DNA of 64,000 bases from Schmidtea polychroa (taxonomy: Eukaryota): the NCBI GenBank assembly GCA_044892525.1, contig CM097885.1, forward strand, positions 177,506,001 through 177,570,000, written 5' to 3'. The notes beneath the pieces are model-generated. The model had not been told where the DNA came from. It searched no databases and saw only the letters and a program-made list of their open reading frames with translations. Of the stretch, positions 1-48,475 are shown in pieces; the first letter of the stretch is position 1; each line of letters starts with the position of its first letter. The position numbers and the translations under genes were made by a program.

Positions 1-655
1 CATTTATACTCTGCCACTACCTTCCATTTATACTCTGCCACTACCTTCCATTTATACTCTGCCACTACCTTCCATTTATACTCTGCCACTACCTTCCATT
101 TATACTCTGCCACTACCTTCCATTTATACTCTGCTACTACCTTCCATTTATACTCTGCTACTACCTTCCATTTATACTCTGCCACTACCTTCCATTTATA
201 CTCTGCCACTACCTTCCATTTATACTCTGCTACTACCTTCCATTTATACTCTGCCACTACCTTCCATTTATACTTTGCCACTACCTTCCATTTATACTTT
301 GCCACTACCTTCCATTTATACTCTGCCACTACCTTCAATTGTACTCTACCATTACCTTCCGTCTAAACTCTATCTTCCATTACCTTCAATTGTACTCTAC
401 CATTACCTTCAATTGTACTCTACCATTACCTTCCACTACCTTCCATTTATACTCTGCCACTACCTTCCATTTATACTCTGCCACTACCTTCCATTTATAC
501 TCTGCCACTACCTTCCATTTATACTCTGCTACTACCTTCCATTTATACTCTGCCACTACCTTCCATTTATACTCTGCTACTACCTTCCATTTATACTCTG
601 CCACTACCTTCCATTTATACTTTGCCACTACCTTCCATTTATACTCTGCCACTAC
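1..655. repeat. 24-bp tandem repeat (CATTTATACTCTGCCACTACCTTC)n, continuing off the left edge
   Basis: Directly visible near-identical units, with a short run of diverged units around 337-430. Confidence 0.97.
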
Positions 656-1454
656 TACCATCTCCGACCACACCCAATACCGATCATCAATCAAACAACC
701 AGCTCAATCTCAATGCTCAAGTCAATCCAGTACTCAGATTGATCAGAAAGATGTCTCCCACGTACAATTGCGGGAGTTTTTAACTCCAGCAATACAAGAA
801 CAAATTAATAAAAGCTGCAGAACTCCAAGGGTGAGAAGTTCTCCCCTTTTTGGCCAAGTGGCCCGTCAATTTATTAAAATAAAATTTGATTTTTTTTTTT
901 TTTTTTTTTTTTTTATATGCGCACTAAATTGTTAAAAGACCTTTGAAGACGAATATATGTACTTTTAAGTGTGAAATAACTTTAATGTTTAATTTTAGTC
1001 TCAGAATAAATAAAATTTTTTTTGTTGTTATGAATTAGATATTTTATCTCTTTTAATTATATCTTTGGTTATGAGATCGAATGGAGAAGAATAAAACTAA
1101 CGTGGAATTAGTCCCAATATAGGATATAAGAGTACAAACCGAGCCACCTTCGGGCGGTACGTTCTATCATAAGACAAACCAATTGGGAGGGGATAACTGA
1201 TCAACCCAAGTAAGAAGCGTAGGGCGGGGTACCATCGCAAATGATGAGAAGTTTCTACGACATGACTGATCACCATGCCAATGTAGAAATGGATCATCGC
1301 GATCGTCGTGCGATTCGAGCAAGGGGGGAAAGGGGAAACACTCTCAAGCGGTAAAGATTAAGTCGACAAATTAAAAGTAGACAGAGAAAATGGTAATCTT
1401 GAGTAAAAGAGGAAAAGAGAAGTAGAAGCATGCAGAGTGAGGAATATTAAAGCT

Positions 1455-1826
1455 GAGCTGTTGAATAGTCCAGCCGGTCAAGGAAAATGAAAACTGAGCT
1501 GTGAAAAGTCCAGCCAGTTCGGAGATATTGAGATCGAGTTGTTGAATAGTCCAACCGATCAGAAGGAAGAAGATTGAGCTGTTGAATAGTGCCAGCCAGT
1601 CGTAAGATCGAGTTGTTGAATAGTCCAACCGATCAGAAGGAAGAAGATTGAGCTGTTGAATAGTGCCAGCCAGTCGTAAGATCGAGTTGTTGAATAGTCC
1701 AACCGATCAGAAGGAAGAAGATTGAGCTGTTGAATAGTGCCAGCCAGTCGTAAGATCGAGTTGTTGAATAGTCCAACCGATCAGAAGGAAGAAGATTGAG
1801 CTGTTGAATAGTGCCAGCCAGTCGTA
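1455..1826. repeat. 74-bp tandem repeat, four exact copies at 1531/1605/1679/1753, each a dimer of ~37-bp subunits
   Basis: Unit AGATCGAGTTGTTGAATAGTCCAACCGATC...GAGCTGTTGAATAGTGCCAGCCAGTCGTA; degenerate subunits at ~1455 and ~1496. Confidence 0.95.
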
Positions 1827-3193
1827 AAGGCCTAGAAAAATGAGAAATAGCAGTTAAGCTACAATGAGATAATATTTAAAATTAATAGAGAAAGGGAATA
1901 TTAAAGCTAGCTAGAAACAAATTGAATATAATTACGAAAATTTGAGTTTAGAGAGGAAATAAACGAGCTCGGGGAAAAGATAATAAAATTATAATGAAAA
2001 AGGAAGGAGAAGAAGAAAATGAATTAAAGAAATAATGAGAAAATAAAGAATAGGTGAAATGGAGATAATGAGTAGAAGAAGAAAGTAACTAGCTAATTAA
2101 AGGGATCCCAGTGAAGTAGAGAAACTCTACGGAATTTTTTTTGGGTAAACCGGGAAAATGTATTTTTATCGGTTCCAGAGTAGAACCGAGTGGGATAATA
2201 GTAAATATGAAAAGGAAAACAGCGACAACAGCGCAAAGGAATAAGAAAACGAAGGGGGGTAATAAGCAGAGACCGACAACGACCTATTTTTACTATAATT
2301 GATAACGAATAGATAATTATTACGACTTTATAGATAATTGTTACTACCCCATATAGATAATTTAAAATCGACGGAAAATACGGGCTGATGGGAAATTATA
2401 ACCCGCAGAAAGGATTTCACAAAAGATAGGGGAAGCACAAACAGAAACCTAAAAGGTGTCTGTTTTTGAATGTTGTAGAAAGAATGATGAAGTCGTGTAA
2501 GCAAATGCAACACGAGATCATTTTTTCATTTTAGATATCAAGCCAATCCAGTCAACCAAGACAATCCAGAACCTGCACAAAAGGAATTCGAAGAAATCGA
2601 CAATCAACCAAGGATAAATCCATTCAGAACCCGCACCGAGACACACAGCAACCGGAAGACTCCAGAACGGAAGAAGATACAGATAGCGACATCTCCAACT
2701 TCGAACGAATCATCGATATATTCAACCTCATAGTATTAGCAGCCATCTGCCAAGGATTAGTAAATCTCCTCAGGATCTCAGTAGCAGATTCATACAGAAT
2801 ATTTATCGAAGGAAACACAATCAGAACCGAACTCGTCCAATTCAATAGCCGCTAATTACCAAGAAGCGTAGGAAAGGAATCACGGATAAACCCAATCTTA
2901 GATCTTCAAGTAAGCCAGGAGACGTATTATTTTCAGGAGACGAATTACAACAACTCAAAAGAGGACGATCTATTAAACATCAAAGAGGAATATCACAAGG
3001 AGCAAGAAGAACCAATCAAGTACCCATATTTGACCAAGAAAATCTCGGATATACCCCTAGTCGATCTCGAAGTAGAGAAAGTCTGTCCGATATCACTAAT
3101 AGTTTAGCAACGTCAACCGAGGAATTATCAGCCCAAAGTTTATTCACATCGTTAGACAATTTAAAAGAAACAGACGAACCTAGAACACCAATC

Positions 3194-6100
3194 ATGACGA
3201 ATGTCGTAAAAACCGACGAGTATAAAGAGAAGTTCAGAGGAGAACCGTTCAACGGAAATGCAAACAAGCTAGCAACGTTCATAACTAATTTTGAAGTTTA
3301 TATCACTGTGTGTGGATGGACACCCGAAGCAATTAGTAAAAGGATGCCGTTGTTTTTGTGCGATAGCGCATTAGAGGTATATTTAGAAGCTAAAGAGAGA
3401 GATACGAAATTAGAGAAGTGGGAAGATATTAAAACATTCCTGAAGAAAACCTTCGGAGCCAGTAAGCCAATCAACCAGGCGTTGGGCGAACTAGCAAATA
3501 GGAAACAAAGGGCAAATGAATCCATTACGTTATATGCCAGCGAATTGCGGAGATTGGCAAAGAAAGCAATGAATGGAAAATTACCCGAAGAAAATCTGAT
3601 CGGTTATTTCATAGAGGGATTACGCCGAGAAGAAGTAAGAGCCTCAGTAGGTTGTCAAATGTGCAAAACATTAGAGGAAGCCATAGATTGGGCTACAAGA
3701 TGCGAGCTCCACCTTCCAGCTCAAATGAATATTATGCAAGAGGAGGGAAGGATAGCGACAGCAATAGCGAAAGCGGATAACGGAGATAACAACAATCAAG
3801 AACCGAAAATGAATCAATTTATACCAGGAGCGCACCAAATTTTCAAACCACCACAAGGACGATCAAATGGGAATAATGGTAATCGTAACAACCCGAATAA
3901 TGAGAACAATTTCAATAATCGACGAAATATGAACGATAACAAGCAGTGCCGAACATGCGGTAAACCAGGACACTGGGACAGAGATTGCTATAGAAATTCA
4001 AATTGTAATCGTTGTGGACGGCGTGGACATACCGAAAATGTATGCCAATTGAGAGGTTGTTTTAACTGTGGTCAGCCAGGTCACATCTCCAGAGATTGCC
4101 GAGAAAGGGGCCAACAACAACGACCACCACAGCGAAATAATAATTATATAGCGAATCCGCAACGACAAAGTAACCCTAACGAAGGAAAACAAATGAACGT
4201 TATGCAGGAAATTTCGCAGATGAAACAGATGATGCAACAAATGATGAGACCAAGACAAGAATCAGCACCACAACAAACCCAGAATATACGTATGATGAGG
4301 AGTACCGAAAATCTCAACAATTATGAAGTGCATCAACATGTACAAGAATGGCAAAGGCTACAGGCCGAGGAAGAGAGGATAAAACAAGAACGCAACCAAC
4401 AACGACAAGAACAACCATTGCGAATAAATATGATGAAGTTAGTAAAAGACATGAAGAGCCAGTATTGCTACAATTACGGGAAAAACCCAAGGGTAGTACC
4501 CATGACTGAACCAGAAAAGGTAAAAGAAACAACAACGGAAATGAAAACAGAGAATTCAACCACGATTTTAAAAGGAAACCAGAGAATTCAGAAAATATTC
4601 TGGAAAAAGATAAAAGATAAAATCGAAAAAGAACATAATAAAGCGAAAACCGAGACAGAAGATGAAAATAACAAGAGCAAGGAACAAACCAGTCAACTAA
4701 ACCACCAAATGCTACAAGAATCAGAATCAGAAGAAACAACAATATTCGAAAGAAAGAAACTAAAGAGAGTACCAAGGATGAGAAACTTGCAAATCAATAT
4801 GATGAAAAGGACAAAAGATGTAGCATCGTCAGACGAAGAAGAAGACTATGTAAGTAGTTTGGGTGGAGAAATACTACAGCTGAATGAAATAAGCGAACCT
4901 CCAAAAGGGGAAATCAAAGAGGAAGAAAGCGAAAACGAGATAACCAGTGAAAGTGAAGACGAAGATATCGAAATAAAGTTGAGAAAAGCAAGGGAGGAAG
5001 CGATAAAACAGGTAGCCGAAATACTCCCAGTAGTAGTGAGGAACCAAGAGTTCATCGACGTAATACCATTCAGGCGATTCGTGCAAAAAGTGATGAAATT
5101 GGAAAGAAACGAGAAAGATCTAATACCAAACGAGGAAAAATCAATTATAAAAAAGTATATGGAAAAAATGAAGCAGGCCGATACCACGCGGTATGTAATA
5201 AAAATTGGAACGAGTAGAGGACTTGAAAGAATGTGGATAAAAAATACAGTCACCGACGAACTTTTCGATTGGATACGAGAACATTTGGGAAGTTCGAGAA
5301 AGAAAGAATATCTGTATCAATACCAAGGAGAACAGATCAAACCAGATATGCACTTAGTAGATGCACTGATATGGCCAGGAGAAACGCAAATACTGAAGTT
5401 GCATAAAGAAAAACAACCAGCCAACCTTTACGATTGGGCTAAAGATGCCAAGGCAGAATATGATTTTAATATCAAATTGAAATTAGAACAAATAAAACAA
5501 TGTACTCTGAGACGAAACCTGGATAAGCTGATCAAACAAATTCAAGAACAAGTAGAAGACAACTGGGATTTACTCATCACCAGACGAGCCCCAGCCATGT
5601 ACGAACTAATGAGCCGATTGCGAGATACAGAAATGCTCCGGATGAGTGATTGGAGAACCATAAATTTGATCCACAAATATGGAAGGTTAAAAGAAACCCA
5701 GCCACAGAGGTTGGAAATAACCATATGGTTACCGAACGAAGAGAAACGACGAATAAAAATGAGCAATCAGAGTACAGTAGATGACTTGGTATCAAAAATA
5801 AACCAAGAGATAACGGAAAAGGTACGTAGCGAAAGTAGTGATGGTATGGTGGATGATGTAGTCATGATGTACGATAAAATAATATTACGAGCGGAGGACG
5901 ACACCTCGTTAAGCGAAATGGGTATGTGGGACAATCATCAGATAATCAGGATAGTACCAATGGATGAATTCCGAACAAGAGATGTAACCTATCAAAAAGA
6001 AATACGAGACCGGATGAAAACGTTATATCAAAAATCTACAGAAATAATTGAAATCCACCAACAATGGTTAAAAGAAAAGGAGCTACAAGGAAAAATCACG

Positions 6101-9100
6101 AAATTAAATACCAGATCCTGCAGACGAACCCCATGGGAAAGAGTGTGGAATGCAGAAAATAAGGAATGGGAAATCCGGAAAGGGATCTTCGTAGAAACAG
6201 ACATTGGTGAGACAGAAAGTGAATCGGAGGAAGAAGCAGAGGAACCTCCAGAATATGAAGAGGAAGCAAGGGAGCAGACATCAGATGACGAAGGCGAGAC
6301 GGATGTCACATCAGAAAGCGAAAATGAAGCGAGACATATTCACGCAATGAGGAAAAAGGAACGTGAATATGCTGATATGGACGGCGAGGAAGCAATAGAA
6401 GCAAGAGAGCGAGAAGAGAAAGAAAGATATAAACAATTAGGCGATATTTTAGCAATGGGAGCGAAAAATCAAAAACGCCAGGTAGTAGCGTTGGCTAATA
6501 TCATCTTAAAAACATCAGAGAATATCCACAATCTGAGAGGAATGGCAAAGGCAATAGAGGAATACCGGCAATATAATGAATGGTATCCAGAACAGCTAGA
6601 ACAAATTATTCGAAAATGGAGAAATCAGGAATGGGCACAAGACACTCAGGAGAGGTATCACATCCGAATCAAGTATCCGGACAAGAGCATCGAGGAACTA
6701 GAGGTACATCCAACAACAAAAATTAGAGAATTAAAAAAGAAATTAGCATATGAAACTCCATTCCATCTGCAACTATTCGGAAAATCACTAGACGATAATG
6801 CAGACGTCGGGATAACACCCATGAGATTGGAAGAGACAAATGTATTAACAATGGCAGAAACGTTGGGGAAACCGTTAAAAAGGAAAAGTAAAATTACTAA
6901 ACCAACAAAAGGCAGTTTGAGTACTCCAAGTCCGAACAAAGCACCAAGTAAATCTAATGAAACTGAAGAAGTTGAAGAGATAATCCTGGAAGATAGTGAC
7001 GATGAACCAGGAGAAAGATCACCGCTATTAGTGAGATGGCCGACAGGAGCCGAAATGTGGACTAATAACCAGCCATCAACGAGTTATCAACAACCAACGA
7101 AACTGAACATCAAAGAAATCATCGACAATACTACGGAAACCGAAACGGATGAACAATTCCAGAAGCAAAGAGAACCAACGAAAGTAACACCAGAAGGTCA
7201 AACCGATAAAATAATAGACGAATGGAATGAGTGGCTAAGAAATAACGATAGCTCATTACCCAGAACGGACAACGAAAGAAATCCGAATTACGAAAATACC
7301 AGAGAAGCCGGAACGATGATGGAAAAACGGGCAAAAGGAAGACCTAAGAAACAAGGAGAAAAGTCTGAGTTCAAAACCAAAGAACAATTAAAGCAAGAAC
7401 AAGGGCAAGTTCGATTAGAAAAATTGGATAAAATAGTATGGGATCTAAAGGAAGCCCAACCAACGATCGAAAGAGGAGAAAAATGGATACGTGAATTGTT
7501 AAAAGATATGTTAATAATAACAAACCCACAACTTAGACGTTTGTGGCAACGGAAAGTAGCCAGTACGGAAGCTAGACAATTATGGCACACCATTTCGGGG
7601 ATAATCCCAAAGTTAATCAAAGAGAAAACGAAAACCACCAAAACGGATTGGGACGAAACGAAGAGAGTGATTGAACAGCTCACGACAAATGCAAATGATG
7701 ACGAACATCATCTAGTGGTAATCACGTATTTGATGTATAATTTGATGGGACTAGCTGCGAGGAAAATACCAAATAAACAGTTTGCAAATCATGTGGAAAT
7801 GACCGTTTCAATCATAGAGAATACTATTGAACCACATATTATTCGTGCAGGAGGATGGAAAAGACTGATACAAGCGCCACGAAAAAATGAGCAAGAAAGG
7901 TCGATGCAAGTTAGATTGAAAAAACTGTTAAATGAACTAGAATGGGAACTACCGATGAAAGATCCCGCAAGCAGAAAAGCATCAATAAATTCGTTAATGA
8001 TGACTATGATGATATGGATGTTGTGCACAAGTGGAGCAACGGGTTTTACCATCTACGATTGTGATAATATGATAATGAGAGATAAATACTCATTGAGAGA
8101 CATAGAAGAATGCAGACAAGCCTCACCCAACAAATTGGACATCGTGAGAACAAAAGTTACTTACCATGTATATCAAGAATCAGATTTCATCAGAACGCAA
8201 GCAAGGGAATGCGTAGTATCAAAAAAGGTACTCGCATATTACTGTGGACAATATTCGTATTCGACTCTTATACTACCCGGTCTGGATAAAGAAATCGTAT
8301 CAATACAACGAGAGGACTGTAAAGAGCTATTTAGAACCGGAGCGCTAAAAATGCATAACGGAGTGACGATTCACGGACAAACTGGAATGATTAAAACCGA
8401 AAGTGTTTACGTATCCGGAAAAGTAAAATCATCAGATGGGTCATGTAACGGAGGTACGTATACGATCCGAGGCGAGGTAATATCGGGAGTTGTAGTGATC
8501 GAGTCTTATACGGTTGAATTAAAAGAATACGAAGCGCAATTTGACGCAAATAATTATCAAATGAAGACCAACCCAGCGTGTAAAGCTACAGAAAACGTAT
8601 GCAGGACAGGAGTATCAACTATAATCTATGAAGCTAATACCCAAAAATGCCGACTCCAAATGTTAAAAAGTGCTTTGTTCAATGAAGTAAAAGGAGAAAT
8701 TTATGAGAACGAGAACGACGAGGATGGAAACGACAGAGTGAGAATGCGAAATGGAAAACCAATGCCACCATCTCCCAGAGAAAAGAGACTTTCAACGCAG
8801 AAGACACCAACAGCATTAATCACAGACGATCCAGATCTAGGTATGAGATTTATCAAAGAGAAAGAAACCACCAAATGTGACAGTATAGTATATAAAACCA
8901 ATTACGCAGGTATCTACATGTCGAGACAAATAATCGATAGAGCAGTGGGAAAGATAGCAACGGAGGACGTAAAACTATACTTATATGCAAATAATAAAAT
9001 GGATTTTCTATTTCATCGTGGACAAACGACCTTGCAAAAAGTATATTACGATCTGATACAAAACGATTGTTCATTGAATAAAGAAATATTGAAAACAAAG

Positions 9101-12100
9101 CTAGCTATTGCGATAACGCACCCCGATAACACGATGCCATCACTCCCACTACCAGACGGACATTTTGGTAGAATGGTAGGAGAAGTGATGTACACATACC
9201 AGTGTACCAAGACGTATGCACGAATGCCAGAAAAATCCATACTACCCGAAAAGAGATGTGCAAATGAATTAGAAATTCGTTATAAAGGACAAAATCGATT
9301 CGTCCAACCAGTCACTAGAATCATGAATCCAGTGGGTTTCTACCCAAATCTCTTTAACTGTTCTAATGCATACGGACCTTTGTATGAAAGACCCGATGGG
9401 AAATGGATGATGTTACCGGGAAAAACCATATCCGAGGAACCCAAGAAATTTGGATTAATAGAACTCGCCACAGAGCTGGATTTCAAACCTATAGACGTGT
9501 CAAACGGTGGTATGTATTCCCCAGAAGATCTAGAAACAGCACGACTTAACGTACTCTTCCCAGCCAGACGAGAATCCATTTTGTCTAATATGGTAACAAT
9601 AACTGGGGGCACAAACTATCAATCAGGCCCGAATTACGAGCTGCTATTATCGCCAGACCATTTTCAACAAGCTACGTCAAACATGATGAAAGCAATGTGG
9701 GGAAGATTCTTAGTTTTTGGACAAATGATGGCCGGGATATTAGGGATCATACTCATAATTCAGATAGTTAGAGTAATACTAACACAAATGTTAGCTTGTT
9801 TCGATATATACAAGCGGGAAAAGAAAGTTAACTGGAAAATGATAGTAGGTTTCTTACCATTTTTAGCTAAAACCATGGTATTACATGGCCACTCAAAAGA
9901 CATTCATCGGATAAAGCGATTGATTAAAGTATTAACAAAGATTAAAGGAACCGACGAAGAAGTAGGCAGACGATTCCGGAAAGTAATGTACGATGAAGCA
10001 ACAAGACGACAATTGAAAAAGAATAAGCCAAAATTCTTGGACCGATTTAGAAGCCAATCATCTAACAGCGATAGTGACGACGATGATAACGGGAACGATA
10101 AATGTCTTTATCCAAACAGAAACCCAAACGAAAAACCATTGGAAACGGCACCATATTGGGAAAAGGAAAAGACAAACACCTGGATCGCCAATGGAAGCTA
10201 TATACCACCGGATATCGTGGGACCACAAGCAGCTTTGACCATGACACAAAATATGTATCCGCAATTACCGAGTCAACCCGGTATGCATTATATGCCGACA
10301 CGACGTACCAAAAGTGTAGATCAAGCAGATGACGTAAGAACAATCGCAGCGATGAGTCTACCTGGAGGTCCAGCAGTAACAGTCATGATCCAAATCAATG
10401 GTAAAGAAACCAATGCTATGATAGACACAGGAGCTAATGTATCAGCGATAGCGATTAATCAAATCCCCAGTAAACACTGGAAAGATATCGAATCAACAAC
10501 AATTCACATCATAGCATGTAGTAAAGAAACAGTGGACGTGGTCGGAAGATGGTGGACTACATTGAGATACCAGGACAACGAAATTGAAACGTATTTGGCA
10601 GTAATACCAAAACTTAGCGTACCATGCATAATCGGAACGGACCTGATGCCAGAATTATTAAAAGAAGTCGTAATAGACTTAACAACTATGTGTTTAAAAG
10701 ACAAAACCGGTAGAATATGCAAAATGAATGCAGTAATCAGATGTCCAGAAAAAATAATAGTACCAGCAAAATCGCAGATGATTTGTCAGATAAAAGTGGA
10801 TACGGGTATGGAAGGAGAAGTTATCTTTGAACCCAGCAAGTCATTCGAAAAGCGACGAGAGTTACCACTCGCAAGGGAAATAATAACAATAAACCAAGAA
10901 GGAGTGATACCGCTCAACATCACGAATTTCGAAGAAGAAGACAAAATCATTTATGAGAACGAAAAATTGGGAAGATTGACCCCAATGATGGACATAGAAT
11001 TACCGAAAGTGACCAACGAGATGATCAAAGATGATGAATTATGGACAATAGATAGTATGTTGTTGACGAATGATGAAAAGAAAAAATTGCACCGATTGTT
11101 GGTGGAATATAAAGATATATTCGCCATCTCAGATTTAGATTTGGGTACATGCGATGTTACCCTACATGCAATACCCCTCATAGATGAAGCTCCAATTGCA
11201 TTAAGACCATACAAGCTAGCAGAAATGCAAAAAGAAATAGCCGAAGCAGAAGTACAAAAGATGCTGGACGCAAAAGTAATCGAACCGAGTTGCTCACCTT
11301 GGCAATTCCCAGTGGTCATGGTAAAAAAGAAAGATGGCACCCAACGATTCTGTATCGATTATCGGAAGTTAAACGCAGTAACCAAGAGAGATACCTATCC
11401 ATTGCCGGACATCAATGAGATGTTATTGATGTTGCAAGGGGCAGCATATTTTACTTCTTTAGATCTAAAAAGTGGATACTGGCAGATTAAAGTCAAAGAT
11501 GAGGACAAGGAGAAAACAGCTTTCACGTTGGGACGAGATCTATATCAATTCAGGAAAATGCCATTCGGACTGACCAACGCACCAGCATCATTTCAACGGT
11601 GTATGAACTTTGTCACTCATGGAATCAAACAATGTATGGTATATATTGATGATTTACTAATCTATTCAGCGACATTTGAACAACATCTGGAAGATATCCG
11701 AAACGTATTTATTAGATTAAGACAGTGGAAACTCAAACTCAAACCATCAAAATGCGATTGGGCAAAGGAAAAAGTCACGTTTTTGGGACACATAGTGTCA
11801 GCTAAAGGAAAGGAGCCAGATCCAAGAAACATTGAGAAAATAAAAACATGTCCAGCACCGAAAACGGTCACCCAAGTTCAGGAATTTCTAGGATTATGCG
11901 GATACTATCGCAAATTTATCAAAAATTATGCAGGAATTGCAAAACCAATCCAGGAATTAGTAAAGAAGGACATTTCGTTCATTTGGGGGAAGGAACAACA
12001 AGAGGCGTTTGAAACGCTGAGAGACAAACTAATCGAAGCACCTATCCTAGTACACCCAGATTTTAAGAAGCCATTTCTATTGGCAACGGATGCAAGCGGG

Positions 12101-15900: not shown

Positions 15901-17048
15901 CGGAGGAGGATAAACCGGAAAACAAGGATTCGGATACGAAAAGAGAGGGAAACAGCCCGGGAACTAAGACCAAAGAGGAGGAAAAACCGAATAATGGAAA
16001 ACAGAGGGTATGCCTACCTTTCACTAACAAAGAAATAGAGACAAATATGATATTAATGATAATTATGCTTACCATGATAGAGTTAGTAACAGCTCATGGA
16101 GGGACGAGAACGATAAAAGAAACCAAAGAAGCGGAGAATCAAGATAGCAATGAGGACGAACTAAAACAAGAAAAGAAAAAGCAAGCACAAGAGCAGCAGT
16201 GGGATTTAAAGGAAGAATGGGACTTAAAGGAAAGGTGCATACTAGGAAGATGCATGTCTAGAGCGTATCAGAAACTAGTACTGATAAATGAGGACACAGA
16301 ACCAATAACAGAAGTAAGAATACAAGAAGCATACCGAAATCGAGACGGGAAAAGAATAACGAACGTTAAAGGAAAAGAGGTACACCTAGGAAAAGGTGGC
16401 GAAGTAGTAATAACGCAGCTCCAACCAAGAAAAGAGCACAAAGTCTGTATTTCAAGATTAGGACCGGGTGAGAGATGCCATCAATATGTGACGCAGCAGC
16501 AGCCCCCGAAGGAATATACGGTTTGTATCTGGAGGAACGAATCAAAAAGAGAATGCCGACGATACCCGGGGAAAAGAGGAAAGAAAAGAAAAAACCACGA
16601 CGAAAAGGACGAAGGAGGAAAGCACAAGAAAACTGGCGAGGAAGCTCAGGACAACTATGTTTCGGAGGAAGAGATGGAAAAAATACAAAAGATGGCAAAG
16701 GAGGGTATGAACGAGGAAATAGCAAGAATACGAGAGATGATGAAAGGGAATGGCAAAAGAGGGAACGAGAAAAGTACAGAAGCAATATCAACATTAACAA
16801 ACAAGGAAAAACCAGAGAGTATAAGCGTGAAACAGATGATGTGGATCAGTGGGATAATAATAACAGGGGCATTCCTAATCATAACGGGGGGAACAATAAA
16901 AATAATTAAAGACAAACGACATCGCGGAGAACTAGAAATGACCCGAATCCGAAACTTCCAACATCGAGTGAAACGACCAAGTGATATCAAACAAGAACAG
17001 TGGGTGGAGGCCTGGAACGTTCAGCGCCCTCCAAACTCACGTATATAG
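12843..17048 (+). CDS. Polyprotein part 2: integrase (HHCC completion, DDE core, GPY) - ankyrin blocks - C-terminal signal/TM module
   Basis: Frame reads NCLTCATRK..MDVVGPLP..TDQGTNF..NGMTERFN..GPY. It joins part 1 if one A is removed from the 7-A run at 12838-12844, giving one 4,617-aa ORF (3194-17048). Confidence 0.92.
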   Translation, partial: NCLTCATRKNTGSKWKAPLTPMPVPIEPMTMISMDVVGPLPESDKGNIYILVITDFLTKFPEAFAMPDQKAKTIAKILVEEICCRYGTPKQILTDQGTNFMSEIMSEVTNYFKIAKLRTSPYHPQTNGMTERFNGTLIQMLSNYVDRHQRDWDEYINLCLMAYRMSIHASTKMSPFKLMYGRECNMPMDLEYQPPISQYMEIDDYVTKFKERMQEIWETAGLNIKFYQESYKDLHDRKKNVKQHTFQTGDWVMIETPELIPGTTKKLQRNGKGPYEILFVGETNVRVKLINNPFTRPIYVNVARCKSIPKTATSQPEGRTLTTRSQTYRMNMMQQLAEPITGRLGIQPSEAEKIVKEVKIKIPGWAKDRLDFEILGGLLTMIENYANRERTHPLLRVVKSQWPILFTITDHYGDTPLHKLMKVGNNEQILETIEAFHDCKRSTEQTNNQGYTPLMIAANREKTKDIITALLDTGSKITTQDHERKNALHHAIEGKSTEAFTSLMELLSYEDNREVGNMYDGLLTAIKEKLTTITGILITWRNPIQNDYMINVNEAFTRGENTLMREAMKGHHLFEIPNQLLERGIKFTNHKDEQLAKKRIDTFEKSLFQFTNQARNKYWETVSVLYMMDTMNNIRENYLDIIQILTAEERINNPSGKKTKIRYGKSREPKLTTNQKVTNNVIETKSMSIDQEAIIRKAKEVFFEEMLELSDEIILSKIIKAVHTYARDQTTGLDIGKIKTFLPRAFTMVTKDSRTPLQQAILAAKENRAITIMRILGDMGEETNTKNEQGETAMMYAAITKIHPKTLHILHQSGSRLDERSNEGNSTLDWATIQPNLEMIRFICKNATKEEVENICKNTSQFQWNTVRKNLEAMKLLITWRIPQSNKYAININEFYENGENAMVKNTLTKGGTPKIILIVLNREDLKFTQNQSEQQRIGKHRRIQLRELVKEWNRKRHAATGRKEFEFEAKLARNRVLTAYRRLLNDINVEDDILNDSGGDKHDDNNGKGRKEDKEKREPEEDKPENKDSDTKREGNSPGTKTKEEEKPNNGKQRVCLPFTNKEIETNMILMIIMLTMIELVTAHGGTRTIKETKEAENQDSNEDELKQEKKKQAQEQQWDLKEEWDLKERCILGRCMSRAYQKLVLINEDTEPITEVRIQEAYRNRDGKRITNVKGKEVHLGKGGEVVITQLQPRKEHKVCISRLGPGERCHQYVTQQQPPKEYTVCIWRNESKRECRRYPGKRGKKRKNHDEKDEGGKHKKTGEEAQDNYVSEEEMEKIQKMAKEGMNEEIARIREMMKGNGKRGNEKSTEAISTLTNKEKPESISVKQMMWISGIIITGAFLIITGGTIKIIKDKRHRGELEMTRIRNFQHRVKRPSDIKQEQWVEAWNVQRPPNSRI
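14070..14607 (+). other. Ankyrin-repeat block 1
   Basis: DHYGDTPLHKL, NNQGYTPLMIAA, DHERKNALHHAI, GENTLMREAM. Confidence 0.9.
15096..15629 (+). other. Ankyrin-repeat block 2 (internal duplicate of block 1)
   Basis: DSRTPLQQAI, NEQGETAMMYAA, SNEGNSTLDWA; tail LLITWRIPQSNKYAININEFYENGEN...KFT mirrors ILITWRNPIQNDYMINVNEAFTRGEN...KFT of block 1. Confidence 0.88.
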
Positions 17049-17208
17049 AAAGGAATATGACTGTATATAATTGTAAAAAGTAAGTATATTTTATGTATAT
17101 AACAGTACTATATCTTTATATAAGCGCGGTATCAATATTATACAATAACGGGAATCATAAAATAAAATTAAATTTACATAAGAGTTGAAAAGTGTATATA
17201 AATTAAGA

Positions 17209-17568
17209 ATGGATCAAGGAAATAACGAAATGAACCACAATACAGTAACTGAAGAATTATGGAAGCAACAATGTGCCGTATTAGCACAATTAGTGTCCAA
17301 TTTGCAAGAACAAGGACTGACGATGCACAGAAACCTAATCGAGAGTATGAACAGAGGATTTAGTTATTTGAAGATAATTGAAGACCAGAGGTTAAAAATC
17401 GAACAAATGCAAAGAGAAATGGAGAGGATAACCCAATATAGCCATAGACAGGAAATTGAACTAGAAAGAATGATGGAGGAAGCAGAACAGACAGAAATAG
17501 AAGACTGGTCGGAATGGCTAATGAATAGAGAGGAGAGCGGACACGAAGCCGACTCTTCCGAACCCTAA
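17209..17568 (+). CDS. Accessory ORF A: small coiled-coil protein with acidic tail
   Basis: ATG at 17209 (the track start 17185 is TTG); heptad E/Q/L-rich helix; same compositional bias as pol. Confidence 0.6.
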   Translation: MDQGNNEMNHNTVTEELWKQQCAVLAQLVSNLQEQGLTMHRNLIESMNRGFSYLKIIEDQRLKIEQMQREMERITQYSHRQEIELERMMEEAEQTEIEDWSEWLMNREESGHEADSSEP

Positions 17569-17653
17569 ACCAAACCTAGCTTAAAATGTAAATAATTGTA
17601 AATAAAATATCGAACCTGTATCGATAAGAACTATATGTACATATAATTATAGA

Positions 17654-19042: not shown

Positions 19043-19242
19043 CCCATCGAATAATGTTGTATATAATAACCTGTATATATCGGCGTATATATCCAATAAA
19101 ATATTATATAATAATGGTATGAAAAACCCTAAATACGAAAACCCAAAAATGATGCGAAAAATTTCCAAAGGGCCAGTAACCAATAAATAAATTTTTTTTT
19201 TTAAAAAAAAAAAAGAGATTAATCTATATCAATGATTTAGAA

Positions 19243-20298
19243 ATGACACAAGAGAGAATAACCGAAAATACGATAGCCCCAACCAATACCCACAAGACAC
19301 AAATTCCCAGAGAATATAACGAAAAATGGAACAAAGTAATGTTCCAACTAACTAACCTCACCCATAACTACATCGAAGAAGCTAGAGAAGATGAGAACAG
19401 TAAATATCAATGGCTAATCCACAATTTAAGAGAGGAAGCCGAAGCATGTAAAAGAGCATCAAAATGGGCATCATTAGAAAATACCCGCCAAGAAGCGCAC
19501 AGCCACTACTTAAAGCAGCTAGTGCAGGAAGCGAGAAAGAGACTTACCGATGAGAACACCAAGCGCGAAGCGGAAAAGCAAATAGAAGGAAGGAAAATGA
19601 TGCACTTAGTGGCAGAAGCGAGAAAATGGAAAAGACAAAACAGTGAAATGAAAAAAGAGATGAAAGAATTGCCCATGAGACTCGGATATGAAAGCGAACA
19701 AGGTAAATGGGAGGAGAATTTAATAATAAAGGAAGAATTGAAACGGTTGAGAAAGGTCGCCGCCCGAAGTCAAACCTGGCAAACAAAAGCTATGGAGTTT
19801 GAGCGACATTTGGCAATGAAATGCGACATAAGAGAGCACGAGAACGCCGCAATGGAAGAGATGATAACCCAACAAACAGGACGGATTGTGGAATTAGTAA
19901 ATCAGGTCGAAGAGATGAAAAGAGACCTTAATGGATTACAAGGATCGCTGGAACAAAGAAACATGGTCCTAGCGGGAAAAAATAAAAAATTAGAAAACGA
20001 GAGGAAAATGTATACCGAAAATATTAAAAACTTAGAAATAGAAATTGAAAAATGGAAGGGCGACGAGAAAATCAAGGCCCTAGACAAACAAATAGAGGCG
20101 AAAGACGAAGAGACAAGGTATCTCACCTATCTGCTCGACGAGGAATTGAACATCACTCGAGCTCTAAGAGACGAAATTAATGAATTGAGAGCTCAAATTC
20201 CCCAATATTACCTACCCTATGACCCTATTGCGATACAGTTGCATCCCGCGGTCGATAGTGATGAAGGTTATGTGGGACAGGAAGAAACCTTCGTATAA
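19243..20298 (+). CDS. Accessory ORF C: 351-aa coiled-coil protein ending in ETFV
   Basis: Long uninterrupted ORF, E/K/R-rich heptads, no recognisable catalytic motif. Confidence 0.75.
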   Translation: MTQERITENTIAPTNTHKTQIPREYNEKWNKVMFQLTNLTHNYIEEAREDENSKYQWLIHNLREEAEACKRASKWASLENTRQEAHSHYLKQLVQEARKRLTDENTKREAEKQIEGRKMMHLVAEARKWKRQNSEMKKEMKELPMRLGYESEQGKWEENLIIKEELKRLRKVAARSQTWQTKAMEFERHLAMKCDIREHENAAMEEMITQQTGRIVELVNQVEEMKRDLNGLQGSLEQRNMVLAGKNKKLENERKMYTENIKNLEIEIEKWKGDEKIKALDKQIEAKDEETRYLTYLLDEELNITRALRDEINELRAQIPQYYLPYDPIAIQLHPAVDSDEGYVGQEETFV

Positions 20299-20467
20299 GG
20301 GTGATAAAAGATAAAAACAAAAAAAAAATCGGGACGTACATCCCAAACAAAAAAATTAAAGTATTATAAAAGTACTCAAGGGACTGTAACCCGAACTATT
20401 AAATTTTATATAAATGTATATGTATAAGTCGCACTATAGCGCACCATTAACTGTACATATTATAGAT

Positions 20468-20920
20468 ATGAAAATCGAGGAAATAATAGAAATTACGAGC
20501 GACGTAGAAGAGGGAGAGATTGAGGCAGAAACAACAAAAACACAAACGCTAAAGGCCGAGTTACGGGAAGAGAAGTACGAAAACGAGAGACTAGTAAACA
20601 AATATATAGAAGACCGAAAAATGATTAAAATACTTAAGAAGGAGTGCGAAGTGCTAGGAGAAATAAAGAGAGAAGTCGAAGAGAAGAATGAATGGCTGCA
20701 AGAACAACGAAAACGAGGAAGAAATTGGGAAAAGATTGCAGAAGAACTATGGCAAGAGAGGGCAAGCTTCAAGGCAGAAGAAGTAATCCAGGATTATTGG
20801 AAAACAGAGGCGAAAGAACGCCAAATAACTATAAATGAATTAAATCAACAATTAGAGGAAAAACAACGAGAAAGTGAGGAAATGAAGAAATGGATTCGCA
20901 AATACCAAGAGATCGAGAGA

Positions 20921-20951
<31 letters not shown>

Positions 20952-21184
20952 GAAACCTTTCGCAGGAAAACGAACAAGATTTCCTACAAATCGAACTAAA
21001 AAGGAATCTCGACAAAAAACGGGAAGAAATTAGAAGACTGAAAAAGGAGATAAGGCACATGAAAAGGGAGGTCCGTGAAAAGAACAGACAGTTGGAAATG
21101 CTGCCCGAGTTAAGACACAGAGTCATTAAAGCGGAATCCACCTTGATGAGAATCGCCGAAAATAACCCAAATCAGAACCATTAA
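20468..21184 (+). CDS. Accessory ORF D: coiled-coil protein with a poly-Q run
   Basis: ORF 20414-21184; likely start is the ATG at 20468 after an acceptor-like TTATAG; (CAA)n gives Q9. Confidence 0.7.
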
Positions 21185-21239
21185 ATTAAGGGTCATTAAA
21201 ACCAATTGTAAATAAACATAATGAATGTATAATAGTATC

Positions 21240-21884
21240 ATGCGAGGCGAGATGATGATAACAATGGCGGTATTGATGATTCTGATGGAGAACAAACAAT
21301 TAAACGCCCAACCGAAAATCGTACGAGATTACCGCAATCAAAATCAAGAACCTAAACAAGAATCCGGCAAATGCACATACCCTATGACCGTAAAAACCCA
21401 TATCATCCAAACCATTCAATCAACCCGATCCCACATCAACAACATCCAAACAATGTGTAAAAAGAATCCCATTTGTAAAATGATAAACAAACAAATCTTC
21501 GAACAAAGCCAACAGATCGACCAGTTGGAACAACAAATGCAACAAGAGAATTTTGAAAATCTTGTAGAAAAGCCAAAACCACCTCCCGAAATCAATGACA
21601 CCCATTATCTCACATACGTGGTGATCGCAGAAACCCTCCTCCTATGTCTACCAATACTCATGATAATTTACGAAGTTAGAAATAGATGTAGAATCTCGAC
21701 AGCAATAAGAGTAACCTCGAACAGAAATCCTCAAGAAGTGCCGCTGACAAATCTTAACCCAACCCCATTCCGACCTCGAATCCCGAGTAACCAACCAATC
21801 CAGCCGAATTCTAACAGTCAGACCTATCTCAACATCAATACCCAAACCAACCAACAGCCGCCAGCAGAAGCATCAAATAGTTAA
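21240..21884 (+). CDS. Accessory ORF E: predicted type I membrane protein
   Basis: Signal-like MMITMAVLMILM, Cys-containing helical ectodomain, TM LTYVVIAETLLLCLPILMIIY, P/N/Q-rich tail. Confidence 0.72.
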   Translation: MRGEMMITMAVLMILMENKQLNAQPKIVRDYRNQNQEPKQESGKCTYPMTVKTHIIQTIQSTRSHINNIQTMCKKNPICKMINKQIFEQSQQIDQLEQQMQQENFENLVEKPKPPPEINDTHYLTYVVIAETLLLCLPILMIIYEVRNRCRISTAIRVTSNRNPQEVPLTNLNPTPFRPRIPSNQPIQPNSNSQTYLNINTQTNQQPPAEASNS

Positions 21885-22439
21885 CAGTCCATAAACTCTA
21901 ACTCAAACATTTGTGTTATCATATGTGGAAACTTTTATTGTATATAAAAACTATCACCTTAAGTGATACTTGCTTGGTCTTGATTTGACCTATATCTTAG
22001 AATAAAAACCTTTTTTTTTGTATAATTGTTTCGATATATCCTTTTTATGAATGCATGAAGTAAGATAACTATGCAATTGCGGGACGCAATTTTGATGGGT
22101 CCCCGAGTGATTTGTTGGGCTGAGCCGAAAGATAGCTGGGAAATCAGGTTAAACTTAACTAAAGAAAAATAAAAAATAAAATAAATAGATCGAGGAATAA
22201 AATAGAATAGAACATAAGAAAAGTAATAATTAGAAAATAAGAATTAAAACAAAAAACATAAAAATAAGAACAATTAAATAGGACAATAGAATGACGAAAA
22301 ATAACGTAAAAGGTAGTAGATAATAAGGAAATTAAGGAAAATAAATAAAAACATAATTTTAATAAAGAAAATAAGAAGAAATAACCCAAAAACAAGGAAA
22401 ATAAATTAAATGAATAAAATAAGGCGGTACTCAATTCTG

Positions 22440-22527
22440 ATTGGTCCGCATAAACAAAAAATACCTATATAAGTAAGCAGCAAATTCACTATAATCAATG
22501 TTAAAATCAAACCAATTATAGGTAAGA
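22440..22527 (+). promoter_or_regulatory. Promoter-like cassette: reverse CCAAT, TATA box, then a 5' splice donor
   Basis: ATTGG at 22440, TATATAA at 22466-22472, AG|GTAAGA at 22520-22527; a 32-bp CCAAT-containing direct repeat at 22493 and 22546. Confidence 0.4.
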
Positions 22528-24710
22528 ATAGTATTAACTATATGAAATCAATGTTAAAATCAAACCAATTATAGGTACTCGACAATCAGGAAAACCAAAC
22601 CATACTCAGATAACTATTAGGGACAGTTCTATAGACTACTCATTCATATAACCGATTGGATCAGTTTATATTTCGGCTCCGCCTTTGGAACTACAGAATT
22701 TTTCAAATAATCAAGTAAGGATGTATTGCTATTATGAAATTTGTTTTTGGAGGATTTAAATATTTCTATTATATTAACCTAACTTTTGAATAAAAACTTC
22801 TCCATTCGGTTTCGATCTTTTAACGATTTTATGGTTCATAAATTAATTTACAGGTCAATGAATTATAAATATTTATGTTATGTTTTGTCATCAAATGTAT
22901 TGATTATGCTAAAATTATTTGTTTTGAGAAACGTGGAGTTGAGGAGACCCACGCCATGGTATGAGGAGCCTTCGGGAGCTCAGCCGGCGGGTGTGGATCT
23001 CTTCAATCACGCAGCTGACGTGGGCCGGAATGTGGGGGCTTCCTCACGGGTCCGTCGCTGAGGGAAATAAAATGCTGCAAGCACGAGTTTAAAGTGTAGA
23101 GGAATATATTCCAATATTGAAAAGTAGAGCAAATCTGAATTGAAAATGACTGAGGTGGCTACAAACTCTTCCAAGTATGAGAATCTCATTTTCTTAGGTA
23201 CTATACTTTGAAATTTTCGTCTAACATCATGAATTAGTCTAGATCGACTACTCACTTCCGTGATACTCTATCATCTTGCGATAAATCCCCTTTTTCGTCA
23301 AAATTCATGTCAATTTTCATCTTAGCTGATAGAACCCAAGAGCTAATACATTCACTCTGATGTTATGCAGTAGTATAGGAAGTATATATGGGAGATCACT
23401 GAACGCTTTTATTTACTAAAAAGATATTTGGAGGAGTACGTTATTGTTTTTATCAAAAGCGCCTTAACTCTTTCTGAAATCCCCAATAGCCGTAATCTGA
23501 AGTCCGTTCAGTAAAAGACCCTCTGGCCTCATAACACAGTAAACATACAAGGAGAATTTACAAAAGTATTTAATTAAAAAGATAAAATTTCGTAAAAAAT
23601 TCTTTATTTTCATTAAAAAATTATAATTCTGAGTTACCAGTAGTAGGAGCATAATAATCATTTCGGGAAGTTACCCTTGATAGATGTCGCCAAGATGAGG
23701 AAGGGCTTGAGCGAGTTGATAAAATCTCCACCGGACAGGATATTCTGATGTAAAGCGAGAGAGGCAGTATAATAAAAAATTTTCCAAATTTTCGTGTTTG
23801 CTGAGAACTAAACAGTAGATTCATATCGGAGCTGAATGATTAAGTTCCAAAAATCGATGTAATCCAAGTTCGGCAGCATAGATAAAATATGAACATGTAC
23901 AGTGAGAAGGTATAGTCTGTCTGTAAGTATGCAGTGAATGAGATTGAGCAATCACCTGCAGGTAGAATCACATGTACAATAGCGAACAATTACATATGGC
24001 TTAGTCGATGTGATACTCATGCTGCCGGTACGGTAGCAGTGAATTCACGATTTAATCATCGATAATGAGAAAGTCGAATCCCATTGCACACACATGGTGA
24101 ACACCAACTTTTCTGAGAGATCTGAACACTAAGCCAGTTAACGAGGAGGCATGCAACAGATGGTTCGCATCATACATGTCATACAACTAGAATAGAAACT
24201 AGACTAGTCTAACTTATCGGCAGAGTGATTGATCAAACAGAGCAAAGTCCATTTGACTGTAAGGTTTTTGTAATCGCACGCATTTACAATTAACTCAAAT
24301 TAGAGTATTATAATCACGAATAAACTCAAATCTTTTAATTAATTTATTATCCCGATGTATTGCACCTGTCTGAATTGTTTTGCTGATAGTAAAGTCGAAT
24401 CTGGTCACGCTCATGTATTGACAAGTTTTCTTAATCCGCAATAAAATTATCATGTTGGGCAAAAAAGGGGGGGGGGAGAATTAATTTGTTAACCCGTAAA
24501 CATATAATTACTTTACGGATGTAATATCGATCAACAGGAAGTTTCGCTAACAGTCATTCCGTTTTCTTCTTGTCGGTCATTTCAACCCATGAATGTAATG
24601 TAGGGAATTTATGAGCCTTAATAAATAATTACGCTACTCTGATGGATTAGTAGAGCTAGCCAATTTTCGTCTTATCTCTATTATTCTTTCTTCATTATAG
24701 CTATCAAAAG

Positions 24711-25454
24711 ATGTTGCCAAGCACGAAATCGCCCATCAAACCCTGCTTCTCCTGCTCGGATAAAAATACCGTAATCCGAGAATTACAGGCCCAGATCGGT
24801 TGATATAAAAAGAAGATCGACGATCTGGAAGGTACCTGGTTTAGCCCAGTACAAATGAAGGAAGTTCAAAAGAAATTGTACCGCAGTGAGCATTGTCGCG
24901 ATGCTTTGATAAGCGAAAGTAGAGCTCAGCGTAGCCTAATCAAAGAGCAGTCCGAAGCTCTACATAAAGTTTACGTTCAAGCCGCTACAACCCGAAGGAT
25001 TGTTAGTATTCCGATTAAAGAAGCGGACAATGTCTTCCCCGTTCACCATGAACCTTCATTTAGTTCGCCACCCTTGTCGAAAAGATCTTGTCAGGAATGT
25101 GTGGAGGCCGACCTCTCCCCCAGGCCATCGGACGTACCTACTACCGGCACTGGCAAGGTATTGCATTCAGCCACGACGTCCTCGGCAATCTTGTCTGCCA
25201 ACCCCTCAAAACCTAAGCGCCGCCAATTGTCCAGAGCGGAGCGTAAAAAGCGCCAACGTGAACGAGCAATTGTCAAACAACGAGAACTATCTGTCAACCA
25301 CCCAAGTGCTTCGAATGATCCACCCGTAACGATCGATCTGACCGTAGGAATCCCAGGGCGAATCATATCTGCCGCTGGTGTGACTTGGGAGGAGAATGCC
25401 TCCGAGTTTTTTGATCTAGATGAGCTATTGGCGGATGCGGGGTGGGAGAAGTGA
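24711..25454 (+). pseudogene. ORF inside the putative LTR: CxxC, coiled coil, basic NLS-like segment, acidic-aromatic C-terminus; one in-frame TGA at 24801
   Basis: ATG 24711 is in frame with track ORF 24855-25454; a strong acceptor-like TTATTCTTTCTTCATTATAG lies 10 nt upstream. Confidence 0.5.
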
Positions 25455-26026
25455 TGGCCGCAACACGATGCAACCGTGCAGGGTGCGAATGGACAAATAA
25501 ACTATCTTGACTCTTTTTCTTCTTAATCTATTCTCCACCAAGTGTACTTGTTATGTAGTGTATAATTCTCTAATGTATCATGATAATAAAATAAAGGAAT
25601 ATTTGGTTAAATTTTTGTTGTTGTTTAAATCTAACTAGCTGTGATAAAGGTTCAGCGTAGTGTTCGCCAAGCGAGAGTAAAGTTTGAGTTCGAGAGGCAG
25701 TGGTCAATTTTGTGCCGAATAAGGGGTCAGGGTAGAGGGAGAATCTGATGAGGTAAACACACGTAAGTCCTTCCATCGGCCGTCAGAAAAGGGAAGTCGA
25801 GGCCTCAGTAAGGAGTAGTCCTAAGGTAGGGGCTCACCTGCTTACTATAGTCTCGCCGACATAGCACATTTCCAACGTGAAGCAATTCGCGGGTGCTATG
25901 TTGGAGGGCAAGTTGTGCGGGGTCCTGCTCCGGGTTGACACGGGCGTATGTAGCGTAATGATATGGGCACGCACCCCCTAGACAAGGACGTAGATTGAGC
26001 AGAGTCAACCAAGCACTACCCCAGCA

Positions 26027-26253
26027 GTAGATTGATATCGAAATCCGAATTGATTGAAAATAAGCTAAGGAAAAAACTCAATGATGGTAGGAAAATGTAT
26101 TTAACTTGTTACATTTGTAATGAAAATCAAGTATCGGTTTTGTTTTTACCTTGCGGACATGTAATTGTATGTTCTAAATGCCATGATTCAAATGTTCGCA
26201 AATGTAAAGCATGTTCAATGTATATTAATGAGTATCATACTATATACATTTAA
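26027..26253 (+). pseudogene. C-terminal IAP/MDM2-type RING coding fragment of a host gene
   Basis: CYICNENQVSVLFLPCGHVIVCSKC...CKAC...IYI-stop; AATAAA overlaps the stop; no start codon or upstream exon in the window. Confidence 0.8.
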
Positions 26254-48182: not shown

Positions 48183-48475
48183 TGTTAGACGCAATTAAAT
48201 TCAAGTCTTCTTCAAGCATTTATTTTTATAACAACTTCAAAATTGTGCCGTTTACTAGAGTATTTAAACACCAAGGCGTGATAATTATTAATATTTATGT
48301 AATTATTGGTCATACATTTAATTGATTTAATTTAATATAATTTAATATAATATGATATAATTTAATATAGAATTTAAATATAAAAATTTAACAGAAATAA
48401 TTATTTCTACTAACTGATCTCACTTCTACCATTTAACCATAATAATTTTATATAGAGATTTACTAACTCCTTACA
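48183..48475 (-). repeat. 3' LTR (293 bp)
   Basis: Direct repeat of 51684-51977; preceded on the minus strand by a polypurine tract. Confidence 0.96.

Follow-up and report, generated by a model that had tools for sequence, protein, structure and literature searches.

A recent copy of a giant Burro-type Ty3/Gypsy element in Schmidtea polychroa with an internal envelope and a cargo under apparent selection

The left part of a 64,000-nucleotide stretch of Schmidtea polychroa DNA (GCA_044892525.1, contig CM097885.1; G000:C1:177506001-177570000 in our searches, which covered 781 Mb of genome), henceforth the window, is occupied by a single recent insertion of a multi-copy, giant, enveloped Ty3/Gypsy element with long terminal repeats (LTRs). 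Comparison of its sequence with siblings and published relatives makes it probable that this is a recent copy of a Burro-type giant element which carries an envelope (Env) and selected, host-derived cargo, likely dampening cell-death and stress or immune signalling where expressed. The cargo travels with the sibling copies and is kept by selection; for this reason it likely helps the element via host-cell survival or immune signalling. An original prediction, made from the letters alone, had listed a unit of at least 26 kb with Gag/Pol, three ubiquitin-like domains (UBLs), a Bcl-2-like domain, an envelope, two ankyrin blocks, TRAF, coiled coils and two membrane proteins, A-rich and on a single strand. 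All of this was found: every open reading frame (ORF) of the element lies on the plus strand, and the sense strand is A-rich (A 0.41-0.43 in ORFs). The upstream IAP-type RING ORF and the ORF in the LTR are absent from that inventory.

Boundaries and insertion site

The whole unit measures 33,133 bp from LTR to LTR, its 5' part lying left of the window. The two LTRs of 3,914 bp have TG...CA ends and are 99.69% alike (10 substitutions, 2 indels), and a 4-bp target duplication, GTAG, is present on both sides. The primer site lies 7 nt behind the 5' LTR and complements the 3' end of this genome's tRNA-Pro(TGG), over 14 nt in this copy and over 17-20 nt in all five siblings checked. A 5' LTR of about 3.9 kb outside the window and a size of at least 30 kb had been predicted; leftward extension recovered this LTR together with primer site and target duplication. 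A plain polypurine tract was looked for beside the 3' LTR and none was seen; its place is taken by a 38-nt block which is 89% conserved with a sister family, family B. As the copies are young this does not weigh against mobility. Anatomy and young copies show ordinary tRNA-primed retrotransposition as the mode of replication. In this copy the integrase is broken and the primer match shortened. tRNA-Pro(TGG) genes also form a long tandem array with a 475-bp period (G000:C1 from about 130.9 Mb; L113), and the tRNA-Pro(TGG) pattern has 2,269 matches genome-wide, some of which are primer sites.

The unit had been taken to start at window position 1, which proved incorrect. Positions 1-913, C/T-rich with A 0.24, belong to a foreign nested insert of 3.3 kb in all, which has its left end (L001:7601) about 2,400 bases before window position 1, is missing from 15/15 siblings and stands outside the family's normal structure. 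It has a 258-codon ORF without known family, an internal 76-bp direct repeat and no target duplication, and about 10 loci elsewhere in the genome are related to it. The insertion of the giant element interrupts a RING-finger gene (portion at 26029-26250, Pfam E 1e-10) in a Polinton-like region with A32-like ATPase and integrase fragments (L002:7867-10000, L001:1-2893, window 26029-26250). The element's own upstream RING belongs to the same Pfam family as the gene it interrupts.

Sibling copies, age and selection

A search with the reverse transcriptase (RT) returned 832 candidates; from the best 40, 15 copies at 14 loci were fetched. Gag, UBLs, Bcl-2-like domain, Env, Pol, both ankyrin blocks, membrane tail, 119-aa ORF and TRAF follow in the same order in 15/15 siblings; the original prediction had proposed this comparison of cargo order as a check. 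The last three ORFs are in the fetched range of 13/15 siblings, displaced in the other two by 11- and 16-kb insertions, and the upstream RING is present in 14 of 15. Eleven siblings gave LTR pairs, 99.3-100% alike; 4-bp target duplications flank all eight siblings with both ends displayed, at lengths of 29.7-30.4 kb. When the genome was queried with the ankyrin region, 150/150 scored matches were at least 90% identical, and the family has at least 150 copies. These identities and those of the LTR pairs demonstrate that the family is young. Some copies stand head to tail in tandem and share LTRs, with a period of 26,181 bp (L031-L037).

dN/dS was computed against five diverged siblings; by shared ancestry these comparisons are not independent. 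The ratios are 0.01-0.07 for the Gag, Env and Pol domains (Env alone 0.02-0.03), 0.02-0.14 for UBL1-2, 0-0.09 for UBL3, 0-0.21 for the Bcl-2-like domain, 0.06-0.17 for the ankyrins, 0.12-0.15 for TRAF, 0.05-0.11 for the upstream RING, and for the coiled-coil ORFs 0.13-0.14 (CC1) and 0.07-0.22 (the other). They indicate that most of the cargo is under purifying selection. The same holds, judged from pN of 0.19-0.24 against pS of about 0.9, for the LTR ORF when four diverged LTR types are compared. Selection on the cargo shows use, not target. In the same sibling pairs dS is about 0.1 in Gag and 1.4-2.4 in the upstream RING, a disparity from which we conclude that modules were exchanged between lineages.

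The polyprotein

This copy has two overlapping long plus-strand frames, 2849-12976 (3,375 codons) and 12840-17048 (1,402 codons), which are followed by five ORFs up to 21884. The split is a break of this copy, and the family polyprotein is a single 4,732-codon frame (59/150 scored copies, hand count). The frameshift sits in the integrase zinc-binding region, which is read through in 14/14 copies tested, 5/14 having one frame from Gag to tail; the 1,402-codon frame recurs in 3 of 150 scored ankyrin matches, this copy included. Since siblings read through and the long frame is kept in so many copies, the frameshift is damage or a local error of this copy, not design.

Protease, RT, RNase H and integrase come in the order of Ty3/Gypsy elements with the catalytic motifs DTGA and YIDD and a D..D..E region. 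This order rules out the integrase-first arrangement of Gmr1. The ankyrins are recognised by Pfam with E 5e-18. Env lies in frame with Gag upstream and Pol downstream, and has a 554-aa ectodomain with 14 Cys followed by a transmembrane segment. In 13/13 relatives printed, a hydrophobic stretch and then [YF]DC stand ahead of Env; in 4 of those 13 a GGW-bearing Bcl-2-like segment also precedes it.

Table 1. Features of the element, with positions in the window unless marked L001.
Feature	Position	Strand	Evidence or remark
5' LTR	L001:2894-6805, 7.1 to 3.2 kb left of window	+	LTR pairing
IAP-type RING ORF	L001:7100-7585, left of window	+	Pfam E 7e-11
Nested foreign insert, right part	1..913	.	24-bp tandem array, ends in T run
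Leader region	914..3193	+	holds 74-bp tandem array at 1531-1827
106-codon open frame without ATG	2535..2855	+	directly behind acceptor-like TTTTTTCATTTTAG
Polyprotein, 5' part	3194..12976	+	Gag through start of integrase
Gag	3347-3628	+	Pfam Retrotrans_gag E 2e-9
Three CCHC zinc knuckles	3947-4100	+	Pfam / motif scan
UBL1	5180-5419	+	ubiquitin-like, profile set
UBL2	5708-5971	+	ubiquitin-like, profile set
UBL3	6647-6880	+	ubiquitin-like, profile set
Bcl-2-like domain	7400-7921	+	HHalign, profile search, predicted structure
Predicted signal peptide before Env	about 7985-8044	+	read by eye, from relatives
Env, Monjiviricetes/gB-like (class III) glycoprotein	8045..9811	+	Pfam Monjiviricetes_fusion E 7e-68
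Protease	10382-10657	+	Pfam; DTGA motif
dUTPase-like	10730-11011	+	by position
RT	11321-11797	+	Pfam; YIDD motif
RNase H	11984-12373	+	Pfam
Polyprotein, 3' part	12840..17048	+	severed from 5' part by frameshift in this copy
Integrase core	12921-13214	+	Pfam; D..D..E region
Ankyrin block 1	about 14004-14480	+	Pfam ankyrins
Ankyrin block 2	about 15066-15545	+	Pfam ankyrins
Second predicted signal peptide	16035-16106	+	hydrophobic segment; ectodomain next
Transmembrane segment of second membrane protein	16827-16910	+	hydrophobic segment
119-aa accessory ORF	17209..17568	+	no Pfam family; homologue in family B
TRAF, full-length, intronless, 462 aa	17654..19042	+	RING, zinc fingers, coiled coil, MATH; RING+MATH E 3e-26
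351-aa coiled-coil-like ORF	19243..20298	+	ORF call
256-aa coiled-coil-like ORF	20414..21184	+	acceptor-like AG ahead of ATG at 20468
219-aa predicted type I membrane protein	21225..21884	+	hydrophobic segments 21249-21290, 21603-21680
3' LTR	22113..26026	+	3,914 bp, TG...CA, pairs with 5' LTR
LTR-borne ORF, 247 codons	24711..25454	+	open in 5' LTR, early stop in this 3' LTR
Target-site duplication, right copy GTAG	26027..26030	.	same 4 bp at left end

The three UBLs are recognised as a set. A profile of nine segments, three of them from the window, matches ubiquitin/ISG15 with single-domain E values of about 1e-4 to 4e-7. Searched singly against ubiquitin-like families, UBL3 reaches E 0.029 and UBL2 E 0.14; UBL1 searched alone gave no ubiquitin-like family match and is the least supported of the three.

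The Bcl-2-like domain gives E 0.02-0.09 with Pfam alone. Against host Bcl-2 proteins HHalign reports 93%, against five unrelated controls 0.1-0.2%, and against single host proteins 3-96%. Bcl-xL comes out on top (E 2.5e-4) when a profile built from eight element-borne segments is searched. For the predicted model (pLDDT 72) the Foldseek rows listed are all Bcl-2 family, the best E being 0.012, none below 0.001, with TM-scores by query of 0.5-0.6. Together these data lend moderate support to a Bcl-2 helical fold. The BH1 motif NWGR, retained by the host proteins, is absent from the element alignments A1 and A3, and the domain retains only a BH2-type GGW. The label 'anti-apoptosis' given by the original prediction was drawn from the family name and is overstated. 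Many dispersed short Bcl-2-like ORFs with a WTRI-type BH1 segment exist in the genome (L130-L134); at the one locus fetched they lie outside Gag-Env-Pol elements.

The accessory genes

The accessory genes appear to form an operon-like cassette, in which acceptor-like AGs precede the ORFs and a motif follows the stops. In the window these AGs stand before 17209, 17654, 19243, 20468 and 21240. Their spacers measure 55-228 nt. In 3/6 ORFs of the window and 5/7 of family B a TAG precedes the first ATG, ending 0-4 nt from it, against 9/177 internal ATGs; the remaining accessory ORFs have AAG at that place, or TAG before a nearby later ATG. The acceptor-like AG is retained in diverged siblings, and one site alternates between TAG and CAG. 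The motif TGTA[ACT]ATA occurs 11 times in 897 nt of window-family spacers (shuffle mean 0.6; 0/500 reach 11), once in 20 kb of the remaining element, and 7 times in 1,062 nt of family B spacers (shuffle mean 0.8; 0/500), mostly 13-29 nt past the stop. These counts are descriptive, because the motif was picked after viewing both spacer sets. Such a motif would suit a Pumilio-type or 3'-end element. Flatworm operon spacers are near 100 bp according to the accessible text of PMC8629364, and this similarity makes trans-splicing of the accessory ORFs plausible. Cis-splicing from an LTR leader fits the spacer signals equally well.

The aligned part of the frame at 2535..2855 is stop-free in 14/14 siblings; it gave no match in family B. 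Compared along its whole length with 30 fetched host loci, TRAF reaches 31% identity at most, hence its capture is old. A 254-aa ORF at L142:7595-8356, in a different context, is 35% identical to the LTR ORF, which suggests an ORF family wider than this element.

Relatives and known systems

Family B was found by a MATH search of the genome and comprises four copies, 35.1-36.6 kb long, whose frame has 4,791 codons. MATH lies between UBL2 and UBL3, there is one ankyrin block, and TRAF, BIR-RING and coiled-coil ORFs follow downstream. RT-RNase H of the two families is 88-89% identical and they form a 100/100 clade in a tree built without named references; in this region identity is 48-49% for the genome's compact Gag-Env-Pol elements of 13-17 kb. 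Among Env relatives in public assemblies, Gag-Env-Pol polyproteins come first and free-standing glycoproteins of about 650 aa next, which agrees with the gB-type errantiviruses of flatworms in PMC13524379. One Gag-Env-Pol-type polyprotein of this clade (P0008) is filed as a hypothetical protein of a Flavobacteriaceae metagenome-assembled genome and is likely a binning contaminant.

Burro, which the original prediction had named, is the right comparison. PMC6431247, citing Jurka 2007 and Grohme 2018, describes Burro1/GYPSM1 and Burro-2 to -4 from Schmidtea mediterranea, with a published cargo of MATH/TRAF, BIR, ankyrin, BCL2-like and Ubi/SUMO-like domains and with env in frame between gag and pol. 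The window family shares with Burro1/GYPSM1 a size above 30 kb, kilobase LTRs and one very long ORF (4,873 aa there, 4,732 codons here), a Gag with three CCHC knuckles, Ubi/SUMO-like and BCL2-like domains, env between gag and pol, a dUTPase-like segment between protease and RT, ankyrins, TRAF/MATH, tandem repeats and accessory ORFs (PMC6431247). Unlike Burro1/GYPSM1 proper, it has neither MATH in the polyprotein nor a BIR ORF, whereas family B has both; it has two ankyrin blocks against one in family B, and TRAF only as a full-length downstream ORF. Family B has the layout published for Burro1/GYPSM1. Nearly all of the cargo, held by the original prediction to be untypical of LTR retrotransposons, is already published for planarian Burro/GYPSM1 and consequently not new for them (PMC6431247). 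The second and third membrane proteins, the LTR ORF, the selection on the cargo and the spacer signals are unmentioned in the Burro account of PMC6431247. In the Burro-like element of Dugesia tigrina ORF1 also lacks MATH and TRAF is a separate accessory ORF as here, yet it lies upstream of ORF1 and not downstream (PMC6431247). By its gene content the window family is well supported as a further member of the known Burro kind, possibly already named; it may be one of Burro-2 to -4, with which it was compared by description only.

Gene order and a class III-type glycoprotein are also common to the Platyhelminthes GAG-ENV-POL errantiviruses with HSV/gB-type ENV, as far as the accessible part of PMC13524379 goes. 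The printed Env rows of Smed_1 and _2, from the set Smed_errantivirus_1-6, visibly resemble the Env of the window; an identical Env motif was not found in the accessible alignment file. These elements span about 14.5-18 kb, and the same text has neither LTR annotation nor accessory cargo for them and does not use the name Burro.

The likeness of the window family extends to complex retroviruses and large DNA viruses in its accessory genes of death and ubiquitin signalling, its several acceptor-like sites and an ORF in the LTR. Such viruses carry vBcl-2, IkB-like ankyrins and IAPs. Unlike them, the window element has a Gypsy-type Pol and a single polyprotein with internal Env.

Proposed working and rival explanations

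Judging from the hydrophobic segments and the 13 relatives, the polyprotein would be cut by signal peptidase and by the element's own protease. Gag, UBLs and Bcl-2-like domain would stay cytosolic and end in the Env signal peptide, which would serve as membrane anchor of the Bcl-2-like domain. Env would be luminal, Pol and the ankyrin blocks would reside on its cytoplasmic tail, and the second signal peptide would yield a second surface protein. With no programmed frameshift, equal amounts (1:1:1) of Gag, Env and Pol would result. Family B has the same predicted membrane topology. Each downstream ORF probably has a processed RNA of its own for translation, with splicing at the AG immediately ahead of the ATG, and TGTA[ACT]ATA after the stops may act in 3'-end formation or mRNA control. 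Env likely carries the element between cells of the same animal. Death and ubiquitin signalling is suggested by TRAF, by RING and, in family B, by BIR. Activity as ubiquitin ligases or as decoy adaptors is conceivable for TRAF and the IAP-type RING; on balance we lean towards host signalling that depends on TRAF as their target, and towards BH3 partners as that of the Bcl-2-like domain. According to the accessible parts of PMC7586133 and PMC13563047, planarian cell survival and the TBK1 response involve host TRAFs. More tentatively, and with some doubt on our side, Burro-type elements may be complex invertebrate retroviruses with a signal-peptidase-processed Gag-Env-Pol, a membrane-anchored Bcl-2-like domain, a second surface protein, an operon-like cassette from which the host's splicing (or trans-splicing) and 3'-end machinery frees separate mRNAs, and products of TRAF, IAP and Bcl-2-like type that actively keep producer cells alive while the animal regenerates, a design undescribed as a whole.

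Several points speak against a cargo that dampens host signalling and against the working outlined above. Since the BH1 motif is lost, anti-death, pro-death and non-apoptotic roles are all possible for the Bcl-2-like domain. The dN/dS comparisons share ancestry; the 119-aa ORF is under weak constraint (0.15-0.37), and the 219-aa membrane ORF has the weakest selection signal (0.36-0.63). A hydropathy scan did not flag the Env signal peptide, and contigs of an independent run, whose kind is uncertain, contained no spliced leader or joint at the acceptors. RNA interference against BURRO1 did not rescue the smedwi-2 phenotype, thus no host effect of Burro proteins is shown in the accessible text of PMC8532177.

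The cargo might instead serve the element's own cycle, i.e., particle assembly, integration targeting, membrane traffic or polyprotein stability. UBLs, Bcl-2-like domain and ankyrins are indeed fused into the Gag-Env-Pol polyprotein, BH1 is degenerate, and a Bcl-2-like segment precedes the Env signal peptide in compact 13-17 kb relatives without TRAF. The ankyrins come after the integrase, where targeting domains usually sit. A purely structural role, however, leaves unexplained the free-standing TRAF, the IAP-type RING and the BIR-RING of family B, which make up one module of death and ubiquitin signalling, and we regard an own-cycle role as rather unlikely. That the stretch is an assembly chimera, or a small element among host genes, has a negligible probability. 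In its favour, TRAF is full-length and the host has an expanded family of such genes (PMC6109357, accessible text). Yet identity between this TRAF and the host loci fetched does not exceed 31% along the whole protein, paired LTRs and target duplication enclose everything, the order is kept in siblings at 14 other loci, and contigs of the independent run cover all 30 bins of the stretch. The LTR pair, the target duplication, the sibling order at 14 loci and the sibling frames refute a chimera.

Dampening of host signalling, the reading we prefer, is weaker when action through NF-kB specifically is claimed. A dedicated antagonist kit as in large DNA viruses, in which the ankyrins would imitate IkB and retain a planarian Rel protein and TRAF would block TNFR/TLR signalling upstream, is in our estimate unlikely. 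The full TRAF is closest to TRAF2/3/1 among solved structures, and BCL-3 is among the ankyrin matches with the longest N-terminal stretch (E 4e-6). Planarian proteins with a Rel homology domain (RHD) and ankyrins exist, and a planarian nidovirus has an ankyrin domain of related type that was proposed as IkB mimic (both in the accessible text of PMC6211748). On the other hand, no IkB-family protein is in the top 60 of 376 profile matches, a ranking that favours many-repeat proteins; none of 22 ankyrin homologues is named IkB-family, Atlas gives generic ankyrin clusters only, and each block has about 3-4 repeats. From their sequence the ankyrin blocks seem to have no specific IkB affinity. The sole Rel-type match in this genome is NFAT5-like, and a host RHD-ankyrin gene for comparison was not found in it. 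Planarians are without clear NF-kB homologue, divergent RHD genes being reported (PMC13563047, accessible text). On these three grounds, i.e., seemingly unspecific ankyrins, an NFAT5-like Rel match only and no clear planarian NF-kB, the 'NF-kB toolkit' with IkB-like ankyrins of the original prediction is overstated and becomes a minority reading.

Beyond the published kind, the new aspects are that the cargo is apparently maintained by selection and its modules exchanged from one sister family to another, and that testable predictions can be made for the expression of about ten proteins from a 30-kb retroelement. Should apoptosis or TRAF/TBK1 signalling be altered by the products, the young copies, which number in the hundreds, could be of consequence for tissue turnover in planarians and for PIWI-loss phenotypes. 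Further, counts of gene families in planarian transcriptomes are inflated by the TRAF, Bcl-2-like and IAP-like ORFs that the elements carry; by shared frame lengths about 100 of the 150 best MATH matches look element-borne (4 fetched and checked).

Neighbouring features

Right of the element, AT-rich host DNA contains an intronless 999-aa diaphanous-type formin ORF (GBD, FH3, FH2; window 31052-34051, plus strand), possibly a retrocopy. TTTTAG stands just ahead of its ATG, too. A small broken Gypsy element (48183-51951, minus strand) has direct repeats of about 270 bp, 97-98% alike, with Gag and zinc knuckles, protease, RT and integrase fragments. A 274-codon frame (53980-54804, minus strand) has no Pfam match; it resembles what we take to be the end of a pogo/Tigger-type transposase.

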